Positions 30,196 to 39,208 of a stretch of 64,000 nt of DNA are shown here, piece by piece (positions within the stretch are counted from its first letter, which is position 1; every line of letters begins with the position of its first letter). Made by a program: the position numbers and the translations under genes. This DNA is from Escherichia virus TH43, in sequence record MT446414.1; one strand, given 5' to 3'. Below the pieces are notes generated by a model. The model made no database searches, was not told the origin of the DNA, and saw nothing but the letters and a program-made list of their open reading frames with translations.

Positions 30196-31737
30196 TTAGT
30201 AGCTTTGATTCCATCTGTTAATATTTTCTTGATAAAGCGACGAGCTACCATAGCTAGCGTCATGCTTAGACCGACCTCTGTGTGTAACAGAACAAGCTGA
30301 ATATCGCATTGCGTCCATAAGGTCATCATGTTCTTTAATAATCTTACCAACTTTTCGATGGTAACGTGCTTTCTCTTCAAAGAGCTTAGCACATGCGGTA
30401 GTATTAAAGACTTTGAATCGACCTGACATCATACGCTCACGAATATCAGTAATTCCTGGCTCCACAAAGAAGTTCTTCTTACCATCCATTCCGATCTTGT
30501 TATGGAAGGTATCATTTTGTACGTTTACTCCTGCATTTTTATAGAATTGTGCTACAGAAGCACCACTTCCCTTCTCAATGTTATCAGCATCGTGAGGAAG
30601 AATGACTGGAATCCACTGACCACGACCATTAATAGCTGGTGCATGATACACTGGAGTAAAGCCACTTTCTTTATAGCAGTCATAAATGTAGATTGTATCG
30701 GTGTTAGCATCATAAGCTGACCATACAGCTGCCGTCGGGTGATCAATACCAATATCAATGGCACAAACACGTTTCCACGTATCAGGAATTTCAAACGGGT
30801 CACACTTAATTGAATCATCAGATACATCATAAATCAAACCTGAACCCAACAGAGGCATACCTTTAGAGCGCATCTCTAGCTGCCATGCCGGAATACCTTC
30901 TGTCATATCCTTTATGTCTTGGTCAGAGATGTGACCACCTAGGTCCACATGAGCATCCCACCAAGAAGCATTTTGGAAATATAGAGAACCTGTGTTCTCG
31001 TCCCCTTCACCTTTCATAAACTTGTCCACCAGCTCTGTTAATCCGTTCTCTGGTGTAGCTGTAATCGTAACTAAACCTTTAGTAGTAAGTGTACGTGTTA
31101 CGCACTGAGAGAAGATTGCCATACTTTCATAAGGATCTTCTTCGTCCAGCCAAATGTAATCCACTGTAGCACCCATTAATGTGTGTTCACCCTGTTGGGT
31201 AGAACGAAACTCTAACGTACTCAGCCCATCAAATTCGCCTCTAGCATTTTGGTGCTTGATTTGTACGATCTGTAATTTGTTTCCATCTCGTTCTATCGTG
31301 TCAATGACGATAGCGTCACGAGGAATAACACCCGTCCCTAATAAGTTTGTATCCTTTCCGATAGGTGTTCCAAATAATTCCTTTTGCAATACCTTTCTTG
31401 TAGAGTCCCCTGTAATCCCTACTGCCCAAGCCAATATGGGTCGATTAAATCTATATCCTGTCCACCAAGTTGGGTAGCGACCTGTGACATGACAAGCAAA
31501 CTCGTATGCCTCGCTGTAAGATTTACCAACACGGTTAGCTGCACACAGGAATCTAAAGCGATGCTTCAGTCCCGCTGCATAAAAGTCTTTCTGAAACTGG
31601 TATGCTTTAAAAGAAAGAATCCTATTATACTTTCTCCATTGATCTCTATCCTTCAGCATTTCAAGCAGAGCCTTCTTCTCCTCTACCGATAGCTTGTCTC
31701 CAGTTAGTGCTTCATATATTTCTTTATCTAATGACAT
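30196..31737 (-). CDS. terminase large subunit
   Basis: N-terminal ATPase region (CAANRVGKS Walker A-like, WLDEED Walker B-like) and C-terminal nuclease-like region with conserved acidic residues. Confidence 0.75.
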   Translation of the reverse strand: MSLDKEIYEALTGDKLSVEEKKALLEMLKDRDQWRKYNRILSFKAYQFQKDFYAAGLKHRFRFLCAANRVGKSYSEAYEFACHVTGRYPTWWTGYRFNRPILAWAVGITGDSTRKVLQKELFGTPIGKDTNLLGTGVIPRDAIVIDTIERDGNKLQIVQIKHQNARGEFDGLSTLEFRSTQQGEHTLMGATVDYIWLDEEDPYESMAIFSQCVTRTLTTKGLVTITATPENGLTELVDKFMKGEGDENTGSLYFQNASWWDAHVDLGGHISDQDIKDMTEGIPAWQLEMRSKGMPLLGSGLIYDVSDDSIKCDPFEIPDTWKRVCAIDIGIDHPTAAVWSAYDANTDTIYIYDCYKESGFTPVYHAPAINGRGQWIPVILPHDADNIEKGSGASVAQFYKNAGVNVQNDTFHNKIGMDGKKNFFVEPGITDIRERMMSGRFKVFNTTACAKLFEEKARYHRKVGKIIKEHDDLMDAMRYSACSVTHRGRSKHDASYGSSSLYQENINRWNQSY

Positions 31738-31803: not shown

Positions 31804-32271
31804 TTAACTCTCGTCCGCTTCCTCCTCCTTTTCAGCGTCCTCAGAGTCCTCTGGAGGTAGCACATCTGCACCTAATGCTCCAGCCAAGAAGTCCTTGATT
31901 TGTGCGTTCAATGAATCTTCATTAATTACATTCTCTTCCTCAATCTTAATCTCAACAGAAGCTGCCTTCGGATATACCAGATCTGCAACTTTACTTGCAG
32001 CCTTGAATCTAAGATCAGGTGGAATATTTGGATCTTCATAAATTTGAATCAACACTTCATCAGGGGACAGATGACTTGAAGCAACTCGGTCCAACATGAG
32101 CTGTGTCAACTTACCTCTACTACCTTTGGGTCGTCCGAACTTATTTCCCTTTTGGAACTTCCCTGTGCTTGGCTCCATACCACGGTTTTCCAATTCATCA
32201 GTTACACCGGGCAATCTTCCTGTAACCTCAGCTACCTGTGCAGGCGTGAGTTCTCCTTTTTCTCCAAACAT
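31804..32271 (-). CDS. putative terminase small subunit
   Basis: Small protein immediately upstream of the large subunit with basic central segment and acidic tail; positional inference. Confidence 0.4.
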   Translation of the reverse strand: MFGEKGELTPAQVAEVTGRLPGVTDELENRGMEPSTGKFQKGNKFGRPKGSRGKLTQLMLDRVASSHLSPDEVLIQIYEDPNIPPDLRFKAASKVADLVYPKAASVEIKIEEENVINEDSLNAQIKDFLAGALGADVLPPEDSEDAEKEEEADES

Positions 32272-32336
32272 CTTATACTCCTTCTACATTATCGTTATAA
32301 CAAAAAGCCTCCCACTAGAGGAGGCAACACTTTTTA

Positions 32337-33023
32337 TTAATCTACATTACCTACGTGCAGGTTGAACAAAGTCTGGAGAGCTACGGTTTCACCTTCCCAA
32401 GTCACTGGAACAGATTTGTCATTCTCTACATCAAAAGAAGAGGACGCCAAAAATTTTTTGTATTCTTCAAGCTCGGGGTCCAGAGCTTGTTCACTAGCAT
32501 GTACCCACGTAACTACTTCATTACCTTCTTCATCAATTACTACATTACGTGACCATTGATCTTTTGAATTTAAATAATTATTCAGAGCCTCATACTCGGC
32601 TTCTTCAATCATCTCAATCATCTCACGGGCATAATCCGGTAGGTGTGCATGTTTGTCAGCTACATACGGAACAACTTCTAAATTGGATGGACACTTACGT
32701 TTAACTTCTTTTGCTACAGTGAAATAGTCTTTCACATCTTTAGCTTCTGTACGAGGAATCAAACCTTCCCATAGTTCACGGGTTGAAGGAGCGTGACCAT
32801 ACACAGAACCATGAGCCAATTGTTTTACCATCTCAACTCGGGATTTACCTCCAGTGGTTTCATGAACACGATTCAGATAGAGAGTGTCCTCTGATAAAGG
32901 ACGGAGATTACCATTGTAAACAACCTCACCTTTACATCCCATGTTCTCGTAGATTGCGTTCAGTGTACTAGTTCCTGTCATATTGTTATTCATCATTCTC
33001 TCCTTCAGTGTCAGTGTTATCAC
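32337..33023 (-). CDS. hypothetical protein
   Basis: ORF at the head of the late operon; start uncertain (several in-frame Met). Confidence 0.4.
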   Translation of the reverse strand: MITLTLKERMMNNNMTGTSTLNAIYENMGCKGEVVYNGNLRPLSEDTLYLNRVHETTGGKSRVEMVKQLAHGSVYGHAPSTRELWEGLIPRTEAKDVKDYFTVAKEVKRKCPSNLEVVPYVADKHAHLPDYAREMIEMIEEAEYEALNNYLNSKDQWSRNVVIDEEGNEVVTWVHASEQALDPELEEYKKFLASSSFDVENDKSVPVTWEGETVALQTLFNLHVGNVD

Positions 33024-33252
33024 TATAACGATAGTCTTTATAAGTCTCAGCTTTGTAGGTTACAAAGCATCTCATGTACAACCAGCCCAATGAACTCAGG
33101 TCTATTGTAACATCAAAATCTTCATCATCGTCTAGGTCTACTAATCTACCCAAACAAGTTATTACTTCAGTGTCCCCAACTTCTTCAACTTTAAATGCAC
33201 ATTTTTCAGTGCGGAAGTAAGGAATCAACTCTGATAAAAAGTCTAGAATCAT
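32986..33252 (-). CDS. hypothetical protein, 88 aa
   Basis: Small ORF, weak evidence. Confidence 0.3.
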   Translation of the reverse strand: MILDFLSELIPYFRTEKCAFKVEEVGDTEVITCLGRLVDLDDDEDFDVTIDLSSLGWLYMRCFVTYKAETYKDYRYSDNTDTEGENDE

Positions 33253-33282
33253 TTTTATATCTCCTCTGATAAACGAGAGTGG

Positions 33283-34410
33283 CTAACCCATAAAGGCGTA
33301 TTCATCTAAAGGCCCACCCATGTATGAACCCATGTACGCTGATGTAAAGGGGACTCTATAAAGGCATACCCATAAAGGCCATGTCACATTAAGGCCACCT
33401 CATACCCATGAGCATGTCTCCACTCTACTTCATAATCCTCTTCGGTGAAGCTACCGTAGTCTTCTTCAGTCATGTTAAGGCCTATCCACCCATTTACTAT
33501 TCCTCACCTTACCACAGTCTGCACATCTCCATGTACTCTTGTAATAAGCGTGTAATCGTTCATCACCTCTTGATATCCGGATTGGATAGTACTCGTGATT
33601 ACATTTGAATTGCTTAACTAGTAACTTAATCTTCCACATAAAGTTGTTCCTCACTCTTAAATCCACAACTAACGTTGGGGCATATAGTTATATATAAGGG
33701 TTTTAAATTCTGATTTGACCGAGTGGACCTAGCCCCTCCGAGCGCGTTTCCTAAAAAGGGGGAGTCCTCATTTAAAAAAGGGTTATTACCAATGCAATTG
33801 CCTTTAGGAAATCAATCAGCCTTTAAGCTCTAAGCCTTGCCCTACCTGCTATCAGTGGCATGCCTACCCATAAATACCCTACCCATTAATATAAGCCATC
33901 TATTTAATACCCATGTATATCTAACCAGTGATTTCCTACCCGTATTTCTCTTACTCATATTGAGAAGGGATGAAAGGCTAGACTCTGATGCACTGTTAAG
34001 GGGTTATAATAAGAGGGCTAATAGTAAGGGCTATTATAGTAAGGTTAGTGATGGTAACACCATGCAATTATATCAATCCTCACACTACCCCACGTTTAAT
34101 AGTAATAACCTATGTTAATGTTTCATGAGTGGATTATTGATGTATGTATCATTAGACTGGAAGTAATAACTTTCTTTTATTATTCTCTTTTAATCTTTTC
34201 TTTTTCAGCGTGCTGTTGGTCTTTTTCTTTTGTTGTTTGAGTAAATTATTTGACTGGTAATTAACTCCCGCATGGTCTGGTCTGTCATCTGTAACTAACT
34301 TACATTATACCCTACCCGTTTCCCCTTCCTCGTTAGGCTTCTTACCCATTGGCTAACCTATGCGGCACGTTCTACCCATCTGTCGTTGCCGTTGGTCTGC
34401 TACCCGTTCT
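33283..34410. repeat. array of about 13 short ACCC[AG]T-core motifs in the divergent control region
   Basis: Repeated CTACCCAT / CTACCCGT / ACCCATAAAGG copies around 33285, 33316, 33329, 33368, 33404, 33867, 33880, 33910, 33938, 34312, 34343, 34374, 34401. Confidence 0.6.
33475..33666 (-). CDS. small Cys-rich (zinc-ribbon-like) protein
   Basis: CNHEY ... CADCGK spacing suggests a zinc ribbon. Confidence 0.3.
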   Translation of the reverse strand: MDLRVRNNFMWKIKLLVKQFKCNHEYYPIRISRGDERLHAYYKSTWRCADCGKVRNSKWVDRP

Positions 34411-34524
34411 ATAAGTGTTATAAAGTAACATTCTGTTAGTAAGCTGTACCTCTGAGTAAGAAAGTTTAGTAAATTAAATTCCTTTTAGATTCAATGAGTT
34501 ATGAAATAGTTTGAAAATAAGTGG

Positions 34525-34552
34525 TTGACATGTTTTTCCTTTAATATATAGT
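34525..34552 (+). promoter_or_regulatory. sigma70-like promoter upstream of the first early gene
   Basis: TTGACA, 16-nt spacer, TATAGT, about 40 nt upstream of ATG 34591. Confidence 0.5.
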
Positions 34553-34590
34553 TGCGACTGTAGTTCACATCAACCGAAAGGATTAATGAA

Positions 34591-35454
34591 ATGTCAAAGT
34601 TAGCAATTAAATACTTGAATCAGGCAAATGATGTACTTTCTCTGTTAGGTCTTTCCGTTGGTGTGCCTTCTCAATGGATGGATAACCAGCAAGCTCGTAC
34701 CAGCTTTAAAAACTCTGTCATTCTGGCTTGTCTTATCATAGATTCCGCTGCGAACGCCTTACAGTGTGAAGATGAGCAGTCAATGAAAGAGAATGGTTTT
34801 ACAGATATGCAAGATGCTATCAACTGTTACATTCAGGCTAATTTAGATAGTTGGACTCAGAATGATTGGCCTGAATCTTGCCGCGATGTTAACGCAGTAT
34901 TATCCCGCTTGTCTGCTATGGTTGAAGCTGTTCAGAACAAGAAGAAGAAAGATAGCAAGCCTTCTATTGCAAGTAAGATTATGAAGTCTGTCAACCTTGC
35001 AAGTTATGCACTGGTTGCAGCTATCGGTGTCAGTGCTATCGCTCCCAATGTGCAGGCAAAAGACTCTCTTTCTACTGGTCTGCAATCCTTTGTTAGCACG
35101 TTTAAGAATGCTCCTGATATGGCTTGCCGTGACGTTGGCAGTGATGGTAATGATTCATTCTGGAAGGTGCATTTTAACTCTGTAACCGTAAAAGATGTGC
35201 GTGTCACTCTTACCCCGTTAGGTGAGAAATCAGGCATTCAGTCGGTTATTAATTTAAAGCGTGCTGACAGTGATCATGATATGGTTACTTATTCTCTATA
35301 TCAGAAGATTGAGAAAGAGAAATTACAGTTTGTAACTAATCTCGTTAGTTATGGTGATGTGAGTGAAACTGTACTCGCTACCACTGCTTACAATGACGGT
35401 GTAGCAGTTTATACAACCTTTATTAACTTTGCTAATTGCGAGGCTATCCAGTGA
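34591..35454 (+). CDS. hypothetical early protein, 287 aa
   Basis: ORF with AGGA upstream; one hydrophobic segment. Confidence 0.5.
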   Translation: MSKLAIKYLNQANDVLSLLGLSVGVPSQWMDNQQARTSFKNSVILACLIIDSAANALQCEDEQSMKENGFTDMQDAINCYIQANLDSWTQNDWPESCRDVNAVLSRLSAMVEAVQNKKKKDSKPSIASKIMKSVNLASYALVAAIGVSAIAPNVQAKDSLSTGLQSFVSTFKNAPDMACRDVGSDGNDSFWKVHFNSVTVKDVRVTLTPLGEKSGIQSVINLKRADSDHDMVTYSLYQKIEKEKLQFVTNLVSYGDVSETVLATTAYNDGVAVYTTFINFANCEAIQ

Positions 35455-35974: not shown

Positions 35975-36073
35975 TTCATAAATATTTCTTGCATTGCCTG
36001 ATTGCTTTCTGTATCATGTTATTTACCTATGACATGATTTCTTATGTTGCACGTTCCTTGTAAGGGTTGGATT

Positions 36074-36400
36074 ATGAAAATTAAATTAGCTGTATGTGCT
36101 GCCTTGTTCGCTGTTTCTTCCGTGTCACATGCTGCCGTATTCAATGAGGCTAGCCTTGATGGTCTGCAATGCACCTATCTAATGGAAAATTACGACACTG
36201 GCAAAAAGTCTAGCAAGGTAGTATTGATTGACCTGAATGATTATGATCATCGTGTCGTTGATGGCAAGCATGCAATGCTAGTCAATGAAACTACAGGCAA
36301 GCAAATTACTATTGATCACATGATGCGGTCTAGCATGACGTTGTTCGATGAGTCGATGAACGAAATAGCATCAGGTAACGGCACTTGCACCAATCCGTAA
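36074..36400 (+). CDS. secreted protein (N-terminal signal peptide)
   Basis: MKIKLAVCAALFAVSSVSHA is a signal-peptide-like N-terminus; start moved to ATG 36074. Confidence 0.5.
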   Translation: MKIKLAVCAALFAVSSVSHAAVFNEASLDGLQCTYLMENYDTGKKSSKVVLIDLNDYDHRVVDGKHAMLVNETTGKQITIDHMMRSSMTLFDESMNEIASGNGTCTNP

Positions 36401-36419
36401 CCAACCCGTAAGACTCTCT

Positions 36420-36446
36420 AAGCGCCCTTTTGAGGCGCTTTTTTCA
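36420..36446 (+). terminator. intrinsic terminator
   Basis: AGCGCC cttttga GGCGCT stem-loop followed by TTTTTC. Confidence 0.6.
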
Positions 36447-36694
36447 TTTCTAAGGTGATTGCACATCTTGCCCCTGTTTATCTCGTTAGAACGCCTCCTA
36501 CATGCCTAGCTTTTGATTATAATGCTTGTTTTCTTCCTCCCTTGATGTTATTCGTGCGCGTGCTCATCTATACCTAAAAGAAAGTGAAATTATTTTAGAA
36601 AAAGGTATTGCTTTCTTTGCTTGATAGATTTATATTTGAATCTCAGGTTTAGTTATGCAGTCGGTAGCAAGCCTGATAGGCTAGACTTTTAGCC

Positions 36695-36708
36695 TTGCTC
36701 TTTAAAAA
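36695..36708 (+). promoter_or_regulatory. boxA-like element (copy 0)
   Basis: TTGCTCTTTAAAAA compared with rrn boxA GCTCTTTAACAA; preceded by hairpin GCCTgatAGGC. Confidence 0.45.
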
Positions 36709-36723
36709 CTCGATTAGTGTATC

Positions 36724-36750
36724 TTGATAAACTCCCAACCATGCCATAAT
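36724..36750 (+). promoter_or_regulatory. sigma70-like promoter (extended -10 type)
   Basis: TTGATA ... TGcCATAAT with short 15-nt spacer, upstream of ATG 36763. Confidence 0.35.
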
Positions 36751-36762
36751 GAGGATTTATCA

Positions 36763-36963
36763 ATGAACATCTATACCTTCTCAAGCAAAGACACACAAAT
36801 CACTTGCACTAGCATTAACGTTACTAACATGATTATGAGAATAGTCGGTAGTACATTACAGCAAGCGAAAGAAATGGTAGCCGATGCCGATAAAGGTAAA
36901 GCTATCGCGGTCTTATCGCTGGTAAGTACAGATAAAGATTTAACCTTTAAACGTATGAACTAG
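36763..36963 (+). CDS. hypothetical protein, 66 aa
   Basis: ATG with GAGGA upstream; track ORF 36724 trimmed. Confidence 0.35.
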   Translation: MNIYTFSSKDTQITCTSINVTNMIMRIVGSTLQQAKEMVADADKGKAIAVLSLVSTDKDLTFKRMN

Positions 36964-37030
36964 GGTAAGGTAAGGTTAGCGGCCTTAATGGTCGCTAGTT
37001 TATCAAGATGCATTAATCGAAAAATAGTTG

Positions 37031-37058
37031 TTGACACGTCGAATCGTTATGATAAGAT
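37031..37058 (+). promoter_or_regulatory. strong sigma70-like early promoter P1
   Basis: TTGACA (37031-37036), 16-nt spacer, TAAGAT (37053-37058); A-rich tract upstream. Confidence 0.6.
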
Positions 37059-37104
37059 GTGCACATGGTCAGCGATGACATAAAACATCCGGCACTAAGT
37101 GCCC

Positions 37105-37117
37105 CGCTCTTTAATAA
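37105..37117 (+). promoter_or_regulatory. boxA-like antitermination element (copy 1)
   Basis: CGCTCTTTAATAA, one mismatch to rrn boxA core; preceded by hairpin GGCACtaaGTGCC (37091-37103), i.e. rrn-like boxB-then-boxA order. Confidence 0.55.
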
Positions 37118-37192
37118 TTTATCGTCTTGCCCTTTCGCAAAGATTCACGCGAGATAAGGGAAGAGAACAAAAAGAAGACGATAAAAAAAGAG

Positions 37193-37220
37193 TTGACAAG
37201 GTGAAACGTTCTGATAGAAT
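37193..37220 (+). promoter_or_regulatory. strong sigma70-like early promoter P2
   Basis: TTGACA (37193-37198), 16-nt spacer, TAGAAT (37215-37220); A-rich tract upstream. Confidence 0.6.
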
Positions 37221-37243
37221 GTTCACTAAGCAGTAAGAAACAC

Positions 37244-37256
37244 CGCTCTTTAAAAA
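37244..37256 (+). promoter_or_regulatory. boxA-like antitermination element (copy 2)
   Basis: CGCTCTTTAAAAA about 25 nt downstream of the P2 -10. Confidence 0.5.
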
Positions 37257-37360
37257 TATGAATCAGAAAGTTAAGCGCAACCGCTTACAATCTTGTTAAT
37301 CCAATACGTGATTAACTGGTCATTCGAAAGAATAGACGAGAAAAAGATTTAAAAAAGTGG

Positions 37361-37389
37361 TTGACACGCTAAACAGGATGATTCATAAT
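37361..37389 (+). promoter_or_regulatory. strong sigma70-like early promoter P3
   Basis: TTGACA (37361-37366), 17-nt spacer, CATAAT (37384-37389); A-rich tract upstream. Confidence 0.6.
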
Positions 37390-37478
37390 GAGCACTCACT
37401 AAGCAAATCACCGCGAAGTGAACAGCGTAACAACGGCTAACAGTTGCATAGTGTGAGAAAGCACACTGATAGATTTAC

Positions 37479-37491
37479 CGCTCTTTAACAA
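37479..37491 (+). promoter_or_regulatory. boxA-like antitermination element (copy 3)
   Basis: CGCTCTTTAACAA followed by TTTA matches the rrn boxA consensus as recalled; preceded by hairpin GTGTGagaaagCACAC (37451-37466). Confidence 0.6.
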
Positions 37492-38305
37492 TTTAAACAT
37501 TCTCCTATATCGGTTGAATATGCTAGATGATAATAACCATCGGATAGCATACCAGATAAAACGGTGTAAGATTCTCTAAGTTATCAGAGTAAACAATCTC
37601 ACAATCCCTTACTGGAAACGTCACCACTGATAAGCAGATTCATCGAGTGCACGCAAAGACTTAAGCTAATCGCCCACGGTTAAGGGTAGCGGCGGTCATC
37701 GCTAACAAGGCGCTACGGTGAAAGAAGTTAATCAGGGTAGACAAGCCCGACTAATTAACGCTCAATTGAGAGCGGCGGGGAGTGGTTAAAAAGTGGCAAA
37801 TTGCTATTTAACAATAAGGTTTAGTGTGAACGTTTACGAAGTGAATGATTTGAGGCCACTATTGATGGCGTACATAATCAGTTTATGTAGTAAACCTGCT
37901 GAAAGATATAAAACGTCAATGTATCAGGCGGCTAATGACTCTTTCGCAATAACCTCCCGTAGTGGGCGATGGTTAGCGATTGAGAGTTGGTATAAAAGGA
38001 TAGGCGGGAGCGAAAGCAAAGTAAACGATATTACCGACGGTTACAATAAAGTAACTAATTAGAGTCGGGCACACTGCCTTATTGTGATGATTGATCATCG
38101 CTATCAGGTCGGCTTCGTTTATAGCGACTAATTAAAGATACCAGATGAAACATCACGGATAATGGGGCGGCTAGGTTAACTCCTGATAAGACCGCCCCAC
38201 TTACCTATAACTACTTAATAACGAGCGGTTATAGTTAAGTCATTGTGACTTGAATAGCTCATAGAGAGCGGCGCATAGAGCGTTTCAATTAAAAGGTAAA
38301 TTATC

Positions 38306-39208
38306 ATGGCTAAATCTTTCAATCTGGTTAACGAATCTGGCTTTAACGCACTGGCTAACAACATTCGTAGCAACAACGCAGCGATTAAGCAAGATGTTTC
38401 TAACTTCCTGTTAGGTCACTTACAGCACTTCCGTGCTAACGGTAAGAAGTTAGATGTATTGCAGGCGGCAGTAGACTTCCTGTTAACCGAGCGTTACCGT
38501 GATTTAGATGTGATTGCGGTTGCAATCTCTTTCCTCACTCCTATCAAGTACAACAGCGACGGGGCGAACGGTAAAAAGAAATGGATTAATCTGGAAGGTG
38601 AAGCGAAAGCGAAAGAAGACGCTAAGCCGGAACAAGTTAAGGCCAAAATGGAACAAAACCGTGCCCGCTGGTCTAACTCCTTTGAACGCTTTGCGAAAGG
38701 TGAAGACGTGCAGGTTGATAATCCAGCTTTCTATAAAGGTTGCAATGACAACGTGCCAGTTGCCAACCAAATCAACCAGAAAGTTGGCGAAAACTTCAGC
38801 CAGGATATTTACGCCTTAACTGATCGTTTGGCTGCAATCCGTATTGAAGCGGCCTTACTGGCTGATGAGCGCAACGGTGCATCTTCTGATAACACTATCG
38901 CATTGAGTGAAGAGGTAGGCAAAGTTAAGAAAACTTTTGATTCACTCCTTAAGAAAGTAACCGCATCAACTGTATCTATCAGCGATGACTATCTGATCAA
39001 TGCCTCAGCCAAAGAGCTTGAATCTCTGGATTCATACGCTGATGAAATGGAGAAAGCGATCAACGAAATGACTGAAAAATTGTCTAACCTTCGCGGTCGT
39101 ATCTCAAATGCTTCAACTGTCAAAGCGAACGAGAAGGCGGCGGCAGATGAGGAAGAAGTATTGCGCAAAGCTGCCGCAATCATGGCAGCACGCCAACAAG
39201 CTGCATAA
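38306..39208 (+). CDS. hypothetical early protein, 300 aa
   Basis: First substantial ORF downstream of the promoter/boxA block; ATG with AAAGG upstream; Ala/Lys/Glu-rich. Confidence 0.55.
   Translation: MAKSFNLVNESGFNALANNIRSNNAAIKQDVSNFLLGHLQHFRANGKKLDVLQAAVDFLLTERYRDLDVIAVAISFLTPIKYNSDGANGKKKWINLEGEAKAKEDAKPEQVKAKMEQNRARWSNSFERFAKGEDVQVDNPAFYKGCNDNVPVANQINQKVGENFSQDIYALTDRLAAIRIEAALLADERNGASSDNTIALSEEVGKVKKTFDSLLKKVTASTVSISDDYLINASAKELESLDSYADEMEKAINEMTEKLSNLRGRISNASTVKANEKAAADEEEVLRKAAAIMAARQQAA

Follow-up and report, generated by a model that had tools for sequence, protein, structure and literature searches.

An oriented array of short repeats across the genome-end junction of a phiEco32-like phage and its possible role in packaging

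The genome-end junction of a phiEco32-like (Kuravirus) podophage of E. coli carries a dense array of short repeats that all point the same way. The array lies in a stretch of 64,000 nucleotides from Escherichia virus TH43 (MT446414.1), which was analysed whole and is called the window here. The interval that bears the motifs is a concatemer junction, the circularised meeting point of the ends of a linear genome that has direct terminal repeats. Among several possible functions, the one judged most probable, tentatively and at about 45%, is that the [AC]CCC[AG]T sites form an oriented, multi-site end-recognition array for packaging, laid out across this junction. Such an array would probably be bound by the small terminase (TerS); we infer both which protein binds and that the sites act in cutting and packaging.

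The first-pass annotation had described the interval as a 1.3-kb divergent control region running from the late operon to the first early gene, a description that has to be replaced. The interval is not free of genes, as it contains a conserved leftward ORF for a zinc-ribbon-like protein of 63 aa (33475-33666). Nor is the late operon its left border, since that operon begins with a gp36-type promoter match (32283-32291) about 1 kb to the left, just upstream of the candidate TerS gene. The leftward genes that flank the array are upstream of this first phage-sigma (gp36) promoter, and in SU10 they were placed in the early class (PMC4281155). The elements of the region are as follows.

31804..32271, - strand: candidate TerS gene (155 aa), directly upstream of the large terminase gene (30196-31737)
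33286..33493, + strand: cluster A, six ACCCAT copies at 33286, 33316, 33328, 33368, 33404 and 33488
33731..33979, no strand assigned: terminal-repeat equivalent of 249 bp, homologous to the phiEco32 and Paul termini (193-bp direct terminal repeat)
33745..33780, no strand assigned: the most conserved block of the terminal repeat, GCGTTTCCTAAAAAGGGGGAGTCCTCATTTAAAAAA, adjoining the right terminus
33864..33943, + strand: cluster B, four copies inside the terminal-repeat equivalent, with ACCC[AG]T at 33866, 33881, 33909 and 33938
34100..34250, + strand: AT-rich, T-rich spacer between clusters B and C (68-78% A+T, T 44-56%)
34312..34407, + strand: cluster C, four copies at 34314, 34344, 34374 and 34402, spaced by 30, 30 and 28 bp
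34525..34552, + strand: strong early sigma-70 promoter TTGACA-16-TATAGT (11/12 matches), driving the rightward early genes

The array and its conservation

A dense array of ACCCAT cores confined to the + strand, put at about 13 copies at first pass, is borne out by an exact count of 14 copies of ACCC[AG]T between 33286 and 34407, with none on the - strand in 33200-34600. The earlier expectation of about one copy per 4 kb per strand applies to a fixed 6-mer; for the degenerate ACCC[AG]T it is about one per 2 kb per strand. The rest of the window holds 26 (+) and 28 (-) copies, or 0.43 per kb per strand. The corresponding expectation is 0.49 copies per 1125 bp (Poisson P(>=14) ~3e-16), and a two-sided binomial test of the 14:0 strand split gives P ~1e-4. 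The motif is not found at similar density elsewhere: the richest other 1.1-kb stretch of the window has 3 copies, and the complete 76.6-kb genome of Bas88, the closest relative, has a single dense patch, at the homologous site (13 copies in 1.2 kb), followed by a next densest patch of 3-4 copies.

The copies fall into three clusters with different extended forms. The form [CT]TACCC[AG]T occurs 7 times and is confined to clusters B and C, while ACCCATAAAGGC occurs twice, in cluster A, where the copies are interleaved with TAAAGGC / TTAAGGCC units. In cluster B the extended copies are CCTACCCAT at 33864, CCTACCCAT at 33879, ATACCCAT at 33907 and CCTACCCGT at 33935; in cluster C they read, in order, CTACCCGT, TTACCCAT, CTACCCAT and CTACCCGT. 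Distances between copies peak at 12-16 and at 26-31 bp, the pattern that an oligomer making repeated contacts would be expected to give. A coding explanation was rejected for most of cluster A and for clusters B and C; the sole copy that overlaps the 63-aa ORF (33488) is at its 3' end. Known RNA families gave no match in 33000-34800.

All of the ~19 Kuravirus-like junctions examined carry 11-15 same-strand copies of [AC]CCC[AG]T in the A/B/C layout. In close relatives, motif columns are 94% identical, against 78% for other non-coding columns (permutation P = 0.006). All four cores of cluster C are 100% conserved in 8 close relatives, and phiEco32 and Paul have three copies at the same place, spaced by 27-30 bp. 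Copies B2-B4 align with phiEco32 copies in DNA that is otherwise only 57% identical. Cluster A is highly variable: two of its copies have a core identity of 0.60-0.73 among close relatives, copy number changes by unit-sized indels (the window has an extra 14-nt unit), and the counterpart in phiEco32 and Paul consists of units such as ACCCGTAAAGGCC and CCCCATAAAGGCC. In TH42, a 32-nt insertion creates a fifth copy in cluster B. Although copies are gained and lost by such unit-sized indels, the number per cluster is maintained.

This turnover could suggest that the array has no function of its own and simply arose by recurrent slippage or duplication in non-coding DNA that evolves fast, with unit-sized indels creating and deleting copies and cluster A being highly variable. 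That explanation is disfavoured and seems very improbable. The motif cores are more conserved than the DNA that flanks them, and motif, strand and layout persist where the surrounding DNA of the window and phiEco32 is only 57-63% identical, or where it cannot be aligned at all. The offset from the terminus is conserved as well.

The motif comes in two flavours, ACCCAT-rich and CCCCGT-rich, and its CCCRT core is conserved across both. Further away, conservation fades. Intermediate relatives with TerS 73% identical have only ~5 motif copies, and the motif is absent from the more distant 7-11-like SeKF_80 and Aeromonas APT65. A scan of IMG/VR with TerL added few close relatives. The repeats go unmentioned in the papers on SU10, SU7, Paul, YF01, 7-11 and Privateer; a mention in the first phiEco32 publication (Savalia 2008) is conceivable.

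Genome ends, spacer and promoters around the clusters

The junction was placed through the termini mapped in relatives (phiEco32, Paul and SU7), for which the homologous window sequence was then located. In phiEco32 the termini were, according to PMC9965538, mapped experimentally, and its direct terminal repeat is an exact 193 bp. The Paul repeat given by PhageTerm has CT/AG boundaries identical to those of phiEco32, the SU7 left end from PhageTerm (AGCCTTTCATCC), read on the opposite strand, gives the window sequence that ends at 33979, and the NC-B right end maps to 33731. These termini correspond to 33730/33731 and 33979/33980 in the window, each inside a CTAG, with boundaries reading ..GGACCT/AGCCCC.. 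and ..AAGGCT/AGACTC... An exact repeat of 193 bp was also obtained from nanopore reads of YF01 (PMC9965538) and from SU10 reads (PMC4281155). It had been proposed at first pass that genome ends far from the region would speak against a special role for it; the mapped termini of relatives fall in the middle of the array. Within the sub-lineage of the window itself, deposited termini disagree, NC-B being annotated at 33731-33924 and PAS59 at 33913-34189, a conflict that counts against a packaging function. An apparent end at 33913-33927 recurs in the records of NC-B, PAS59 and SU7.

One copy is tied to the left cut with particular precision. In phiEco32, Paul, SU7 and the window, the last copy of cluster B occupies nt 37-42 from the left terminus, and all four share AGCCTTTC-N28-ACGGGTAG while the 28 nt in between differ. 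This fixed distance holds for that copy only. Cluster A is flanked by two small leftward genes and lies to the left of the right-terminus cut site, at a distance of 240-450 bp. Cluster C lies to the right of the left-terminus cut, at 335-430 bp from it, and precedes the -35 element of the early promoter by 118-213 bp.

The right end has a landmark of its own. The block at 33745..33780 hardly differs among NC-B, phiEco32 and Paul, and the distant relative L046 retains part of it. A highly conserved region was noted at about nt 130-170 of the YF01 repeat (PMC9965538), and SU10 reads showed variable CCCTTTTTTA repeats at the equivalent of this block (PMC4281155). The block is separate from the ACCCAT array and is probably the right-end recognition element.

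The first-pass annotation had listed three roles for the array, with no choice among them. Packaging or terminal-repeat processing fits best, given termini in mid-array and a T7-like architecture; for origin iterons and regulator sites, the positive evidence comes down to the adjacent AT/T-rich tract and the early promoter. Both of these features, first seen as a T-rich tract at 34180-34260 and a promoter at 34525, are real.

The tract makes a replication origin conceivable, in which same-orientation repeats would be iteron-like or replisome-loading sites flanking an unwinding element at 34100-34250, read by a phage or host initiator or by a primase-helicase. Clusters B and C bracket these 150 bp, within which the element TGGTCTTTTTCTTTT (34214-34232) is conserved in phiEco32, Paul and even L046, and direct repeats beside an AT-rich region are the classical layout of an origin. 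T7 offers a parallel, in that a secondary origin at the phiOL promoter adjoins its left-end short repeats. The cumulative GC skew of the window also reaches its minimum at 33-35 kb; this minimum is not independent evidence for an origin, because it coincides with the switch in transcription direction. Against an origin stand the length of the motif (6-8 bp, where typical iterons have 17-22 bp), the lack of any initiator-type protein among the neighbouring genes examined, and cluster A, which is separated from the AT-rich tract by a gene and a terminus. The fixed 36-nt offset from the left cut would also go unexplained. The literature searched yielded no mapped origin for phages of this group, and on balance an origin appears unlikely.

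The early promoter forms the boundary of the region, outside the array, and the SU7 record has a promoter annotated at the corresponding position. Its proximity to cluster C, together with the position of cluster A within a leftward early transcription unit, raises the question of operator-like sites, through which a phage or host regulator might act on promoters at both ends, for instance to silence or time early transcription. The small proteins encoded near the ends, including the zinc-ribbon-like one, diverge along with motif flavour. This divergence is non-specific: all end-proximal genes diverge together with flavour, so co-variation gave no discrimination for the binding protein, and ECBP2 has a divergent p63 yet the ACCCAT flavour. 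The copies share one orientation despite the divergence of the transcription units on either side, none of them overlaps a -35 or -10 element, and cluster B, in the terminal repeat, is remote from all predicted promoters. In phiEco32, moreover, early shut-off is already explained by the action of gp79 on sigma-70 (PMC12276001, PMC8948821). A regulatory function is accordingly rated as less probable still than an origin.

The array could also act at the leading end of the genome, during ejection or just after entry and with no part in packaging, either as a pause signal similar to the injection-stop region of T5, which is rich in repeats, or as sites for an end-protecting protein. It does fill the 800 bp from the terminus at 33731 to the first early promoter at 34525, DNA that by analogy with T7 would enter the cell first. 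That order of entry, though, is itself borrowed from T7, cluster A belongs to the opposite physical end of the mature DNA, and the fixed distance to the left cut site would have no explanation. This function is considered improbable.

A candidate reader and a tentative packaging mechanism

The most likely reader of the array is a candidate TerS of the PaP3 type, as judged from profile matches. A profile of homologues of the 155-aa protein matches two solved small terminases over the same core, 7JOQ (E 0.003) and PaP3 6W7T (E 0.22). The YF01 homologue was assigned as TerS by HHpred (PMC9965538), and small terminases of the PaP3/NV1-type family recognise specific DNA sequences by means of nine HTH motifs (PMC7672466). 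Single-sequence searches of PDB and Pfam were uninformative, and the AlphaFold model was poor (pLDDT 64), with nothing meaningful found by Foldseek against the PDB. A separate early-gene product (36044-36400), called "terminase" by a PHROG, was set aside, having no Pfam or PDB support.

If the array does serve packaging, a multimeric phage maturation protein would bind several copies together, the likely binder being this PaP3-type (nonameric) TerS encoded 1.5 kb to the left. Its targets would be laid out as one cluster within the terminal repeat beside the left-end cut and one a few hundred bp to each side. Binding could mark a single place in the concatemer, give the junction polarity and help to position the large terminase for two CT/AG cuts, at 33730/33731 and 33979/33980. 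Such extra specificity would be needed because the cut sites are too common on their own, the hexamer GGCTAG alone occurring 18 times in the window. By analogy with lambda cosB, initiation may take place at cluster B, since its position is just within the terminus closest to the terminase genes; auxiliary or termination-side functions could then fall to clusters A and C. Which end would be packaged first is taken from analogy only.

Several observations argue against a packaging function. Clusters A and C, 240-450 bp from the cuts, are more distant than classical terminase-binding sites. LUZ24, with the same TerS family and a 184-bp terminal repeat, has no such array and no dominant repeat at all, and the motif is missing from SeKF_80 and APT65. 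Motif flavour does not follow TerS sequence, TerS and TerL being ~90% identical in both flavours.

A bolder version of the packaging hypothesis is rather unlikely. The array would here be the missing specificity element of a T7-style packaging system that generates terminal repeats without a phage RNA polymerase. A ring-shaped TerS would read several same-oriented CTACCCRT sites at once over three clusters, with ~1 kb of DNA perhaps looped, and would thereby set the polarity of packaging as well as two blunt CT/AG cuts 193-249 bp apart.

The recognition of the junction and the duplication of the repeat in phages with short direct terminal repeats are only partly understood, even for T7. The array provides a concrete cis-element for this problem, one that is conserved, oriented and countable and includes a copy whose distance to a mapped cut site is fixed, and the PaP3-type TerS provides a concrete candidate protein. 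In practice, the array shows where the true ends of Kuravirus genomes lie in assemblies that are circularly permuted. Kuraviruses are used in therapy cocktails, and the array marks DNA that is likely to be needed for packageable engineered constructs.

Comparison with known systems

Like the array, gp36 promoters (consensus tAATGTAtA) are short phage-specific motifs in non-coding DNA, and the third copy of cluster B, ACCCATGTATATC, contains the ATGTATA of that consensus. However, the array keeps its orientation whatever the direction of the genes. The published phiEco32 promoters are upstream of genes 6, 13, 26, 40, 58 and 68 and not at the ends (PMC4331800). With these promoters located elsewhere and no ACCCRT copy within one mismatch of TAATGTATA, an identity with gp36 promoters was rejected. 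Origin iterons resemble the array in being direct repeats of one orientation beside an AT-rich tract (34100-34250 here). They differ in that the motif here is much shorter and irregularly spaced over three separated clusters, with no initiator gene identified among the neighbouring proteins.

The cosB site of lambda, with its gpNu1 sites R1-R3, likewise consists of repeated short sites beside the cut, on the side of the terminase genes. Those sites are read by HTH motifs of an oligomeric TerS; here a PaP3-type TerS is encoded and its binding is predicted. As in cosB- and pac-type systems, there is a site at a conserved distance from cleavage, namely the last copy of cluster B only. Lambda has three 16-bp sites within ~120 bp, an IHF site and a single staggered cut, whereas the junction described here has 14 shorter sites spread along 1.1 kb, and blunt cutting at two places ~193-249 bp apart yields a terminal repeat.

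The closest likeness is to T7, in which arrays of short repeats, SRL and SRR, were reportedly described around the terminal repetition by Dunn and Studier in 1983; no open paper describing these repeats was found. Computed here, the T7 junction holds 13 copies of CCTAAAG, all on one strand (13:0). Both genomes are linear and end in a short, exact direct repeat, of 160 bp in T7 and of 193-249 bp here. Both have a 6-7 bp motif in 13-14 copies on one strand, to the left of, inside and to the right of the repeat, with neighbouring copies mostly 13-15 or 25-30 bp apart and the array between the terminus and early promoters for host RNA polymerase. There are differences too: the motif is CCTAAAG in T7 and [AC]CCC[AG]T here, cluster A having TAAAGG units in addition; in T7 the arrays directly adjoin the repeat, while clusters A and C are 240-450 bp away; and the terminases and phage families are unrelated at this level. 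Common descent or sequence similarity of the two arrays was not found, and on sequence grounds the resemblance is architectural and not homologous, the TAAAG sub-motif of cluster A being all that is shared. To our knowledge, a function for the T7 short repeats has never been firmly established. T7 processes its junction with the help of its own RNA polymerase, on which its route depends, while phiEco32-like phages make the same type of end without one (PMC4281155). Should the array prove to be the missing specificity element, a role for the long-unexplained T7 repeats would also be suggested. Because it is so much like the short repeats at T7 genome ends, marking the ends for the packaging enzyme appears to be the most likely function of the array.

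The junction of the genome ends

The window derives from a phiEco32-like E. coli podophage (Kuravirus, Gordonclarkvirinae) whose nearest records in this region, the BASEL phages Bas88 and Bas87 together with TH34 and TH42, are 89-92% identical. Phages of this type have linear genomes with short direct terminal repeats. That of phiEco32 was mapped experimentally at 193 bp (as told in PMC9965538), and the same length has been reported for SU10 from read drop-off, with blunt ends (PMC4281155), for Paul by PhageTerm (PMC6787329) and for YF01 from full-length nanopore reads (PMC9965538). The exact 193-bp repeat was verified in the phiEco32 record, and the boundaries of phiEco32 and Paul were carried onto the window by sequence mapping (slash, boundary):

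33730/33731, right terminus, ..CCT/AGCC.., mid-CTAG, homologue of the phiEco32 and Paul boundary
33979/33980, left terminus, ..AAGGCT/AG.., mid-CTAG, homologue of the phiEco32 and Paul boundary

The left end that PhageTerm gave for SU7 (AGCCTTTCATCC...) is the exact homologue of the 33979/33980 site. The terminal-repeat equivalent (33731-33979) spans 249 bp versus 193, with about 56 bp of insertions that include one extra CCTACCCAT unit. Because the mapped termini of relatives fall at 33731 and 33979, the interval that the first-pass annotation read as a divergent control region is, judged by homology, the circularised junction of the two genome ends, with a conserved 63-aa leftward ORF inside it (33475-33666, - strand). 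Both boundaries centre on CTAG in phiEco32 and Paul as in the window, and the two termini each read 5'-AGCC inward, which suggests blunt cuts at half-palindromic GGCT/AGCC-like sites. The window has fewer CTAG sites than its base composition predicts (126 against ~239).

Counted from its first Met, the product of the small ORF has 54 aa, a zinc-ribbon-like CxH...CxxC pattern and a place in PHROG 7696 (function unassigned); this may be a small DNA-binding protein whose gene sits at the very end of the genome. The late operon proper begins further left, where a match to the promoters read by the phage sigma factor gp36, TAATGTAGA (32283-32291), lies just upstream of the gene preceding that for the large terminase (TerL), in keeping with the promoter reported ahead of phiEco32 gene 6 (PMC4331800). 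On the early side, a 118-aa product (36044-36400, +) is labelled 'terminase' by PHROG 13168, likewise in the Bas88 and EC.W2-6 records; the label is doubtful, since neither Pfam nor PDB supports it and the gene is far from the packaging genes. The early region also contains a 2-kb gene-poor spacer (36400-38500), whose homologous 2152 bp in Bas88 carry no annotated gene. A terminator-like hairpin (36420-36440) and three near-consensus sigma-70 promoters (37031, 37193 and 37361, +) within it fit the SU10 description. The box CCGCTCTTTAAnAAT occurs there four times (36695, 37104, 37243, 37478), and a related GCTCTTTAACAATCTATCA twice in the distant relative L046.

A one-strand repeat array and its conservation

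Between 33286 and 34407, ACCC[AG]T occurs 14 times on the + strand and never on the - strand, against an expectation of 0.49 copies in 1125 bp (Poisson P ~3e-16) at the density found outside the array (26 on +, 28 on -; 0.43 per kb per strand). The window total is 68, compared with 39.6 +/- 6 in shuffles. No other 1.1-kb stretch of the window holds more than three copies, and the complete Bas88 genome is dense in the motif at the junction alone. The dense, one-strand ACCCAT-core array noticed from the sequence in the first-pass annotation is thus confirmed, as are the interspersed T-rich tract and early promoter; the relatives' mapped termini also fall inside the array, in line with one of the three candidate roles listed in that annotation. 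The copies form three clusters:

33286-33493, + strand, cluster A, six copies
33866-33943, + strand, cluster B, four copies
34314-34407, + strand, cluster C, four copies spaced 30, 30 and 28 bp

The core is lengthened to [CT]TACCC[AG]T in clusters B and C; cluster A combines it with a second unit, TAAAGGC, either as a fusion or in alternation. Across all lineages, most neighbouring copies are spaced at 12-16 or 26-31 bp. Four of the seven + strand TAAAGGC copies in the window fall within 90 bp of cluster A (33291-33379), in many cases joined into ACCCATAAAGGC. The terminal repeat holds two more in inverted orientation (33800-33826, -), and the same composite units recur in phiEco32 and Paul. 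Relative to the cuts, cluster A is found 240-450 bp beyond the right terminus, cluster B entirely within the terminal-repeat equivalent, and cluster C 335-430 bp beyond the left terminus, between the AT/T-rich tract and the early promoter. Counted from the left terminus, the last cluster-B copy falls at nt 37-42 in phiEco32, Paul, SU7 and the window alike; read on the other strand, this end has the layout AGCCTTTC-N28-ACGGGTAG, whose 28 spacer bases vary among lineages.

All eight close relatives carry 12-14 copies in the same layout and lack the motif on the opposite strand of the region. Identity in their motif columns is 94%, compared with 78% in the rest of the non-coding columns (Mann-Whitney P = 1e-5; permutation P = 0.006). 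Copy number shifts by unit-sized indels: the window has an additional 14-nt unit in cluster A, and a 32-nt insertion gives TH42 one more copy in cluster B. The phiEco32 lineage, sampled as phiEco32, EC.W2-6, Paul and three IMG/VR contigs, is 57-63% identical to the window here or unalignable. It keeps 11-14 same-strand copies arranged as A, B inside the repeat, and C, with ACCCAT largely swapped for CCCCGT; positional homology is retained for B2-B4 and C3-C4, the remaining copies having turned over. Intermediate relatives (small terminase, TerS, 73% identical; contigs of 57-100 kb) have about five same-strand copies, including CTACCCGTTTAT, and also the conserved right-end block. The array is real, highly non-random and evolutionarily maintained; a purely neutral array born of slippage, against which these conservation data count, is among the less likely readings and very improbable.

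The motif is absent from the more distant phages SeKF_80 (L039/L040) and APT65 (L041/L042). Both have same-strand repeats of their own near the divergent region: TATAACATC(AC) in Salmonella phage SeKF_80, reverse-complementary to the tgtgatgttata repeats described for 7-11, and GCAATCT in Aeromonas phage APT65, with six copies on one strand, four of them within ~200 bp. A 228-aa left-end protein (32337-33023, -), called 'ABC transporter' via PHROG 12176 without a Pfam hit, is among the most divergent between the ACCCAT- and CCCCGT-rich lineages (38-55% versus 92-100% identity). No description of the array was found in the accessible literature on these phages, which included the papers on SU10, SU7, Paul, YF01, 7-11 and Privateer.

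A candidate platform for end recognition

Since the window holds 18 copies of GGCTAG, the sequence context of the cuts is not unique and other elements must specify both of them. Candidates are a nearly invariant 36-bp block adjoining the right terminus (33745-33780) and the motif array. Directly upstream of the TerL gene lies that of a 155-aa candidate TerS, the profile of whose homologues matches the same core of the solved small terminases 7JOQ (E 0.003) and PaP3 6W7T (E 0.22), in agreement with an HHpred assignment of the YF01 homologue (PMC9965538). The nonameric TerS of PaP3 binds DNA sequence-specifically through nine flexible HTH motifs, and repeated sub-site recognition and binding of several DNA segments have been discussed for it (PMC7672466). 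Such a ring of identical DNA-binding domains would naturally read direct repeats at regular spacing, which fits the uniform orientation and the ~14 and ~29 bp intervals. Given the extra specificity needed by the cuts, the PaP3-type gene beside that for TerL and this fit, we propose that the array serves packaging as an oriented platform of many sites, bound probably by TerS or else by another maturation protein; we assign this reading a probability of roughly 0.45. The bound array would mark the junction and help to place the cuts, with cluster B acting like a cosB beside the end that bears the terminase genes, if the order of end packaging follows T7 and lambda.

Deposited termini within the window's own sub-lineage conflict. 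The NC-B record has a 194-bp repeat (33731-33924 in the window), PAS59 one of 275 bp (33913-34189), and PhageTerm gave SU7 only 53 bp (33927-33979), for which its authors urge caution. An 'end' at 33913-33927 hence appears in three independent GenBank records, as the NC-B repeat end, the PAS59 repeat start and the SU7 right end, at odds with the phiEco32/Paul-type boundary. The position coincides with the third copy of cluster B, ACCCATGTATATCT, in which ATGTATA is similar to the gp36 promoter core; phiEco32 has CCCCGTGTATAC at the homologous place. This 'end' could reflect an additional cut or nick, or a cut placed by measuring 193 bp from the right terminus; it could also be artefactual.

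Other roles were weighed. Clusters B and C bracket a 150-bp tract of 68-78% A+T holding the deeply conserved element TGGTCTTTTTCTTTT, as would suit a replication origin; the motif, however, falls short of typical iteron length, gene orientation confounds the GC-skew minimum, no initiator was found among the neighbouring proteins, and the fixed offset from the cut would go unexplained, which makes an origin unlikely. The T-rich TGGTCTTTTTCTTTT itself (34214-34232, within 34100-34250) sits in the most AT-rich part of the region and is retained in phiEco32, Paul and L046; it may mark a replication start, since TGGTC is a T7-type primase recognition sequence. Operators of a regulator are improbable, given uniform orientation across divergent transcription units and no overlap with promoter elements. 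A role for the leading end during ejection is likewise among the less likely readings, with a slender chance. Phage sigma-factor promoters (consensus tAATGTAtA; published sites upstream of genes 6, 13, 26, 40, 58 and 68, PMC4331800) were rejected, coding sequence does not explain the array, and no known RNA family was found in the region.

Comparison with known phage ends

The T7 ends were extracted and their concatemer junction computed. It carries 13 copies of CCTAAAG on one strand and none on the other, placed within the 160-bp terminal repetition and to either side of it, and followed by early promoters, the same architecture as in the window; the first-pass parallel with repeats at T7-type ends was sound. 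The motif differs, however, gaps separate the repeat from the outer clusters in the window, and phiEco32-like phages lack the phage RNA polymerase that joins in T7 junction processing. The likeness is architectural, not homologous; a TAAAG core common to the T7 repeats and TAAAGGC is possibly due to chance. LUZ24 shares the TerS family and has a 184-bp repeat, yet shows no dominant short repeat (top 6-mer 5 versus a shuffle mean of 4.4; window 11 versus 4.5), so the terminase family as a whole is not marked by such an array. The window's array is best classed as an example of the oriented short-repeat arrays at the ends of direct-terminal-repeat genomes. While unsurprising to a T7 specialist, it offers a tractable handle on junction recognition in a therapy-relevant phage group without an RNA polymerase of its own.
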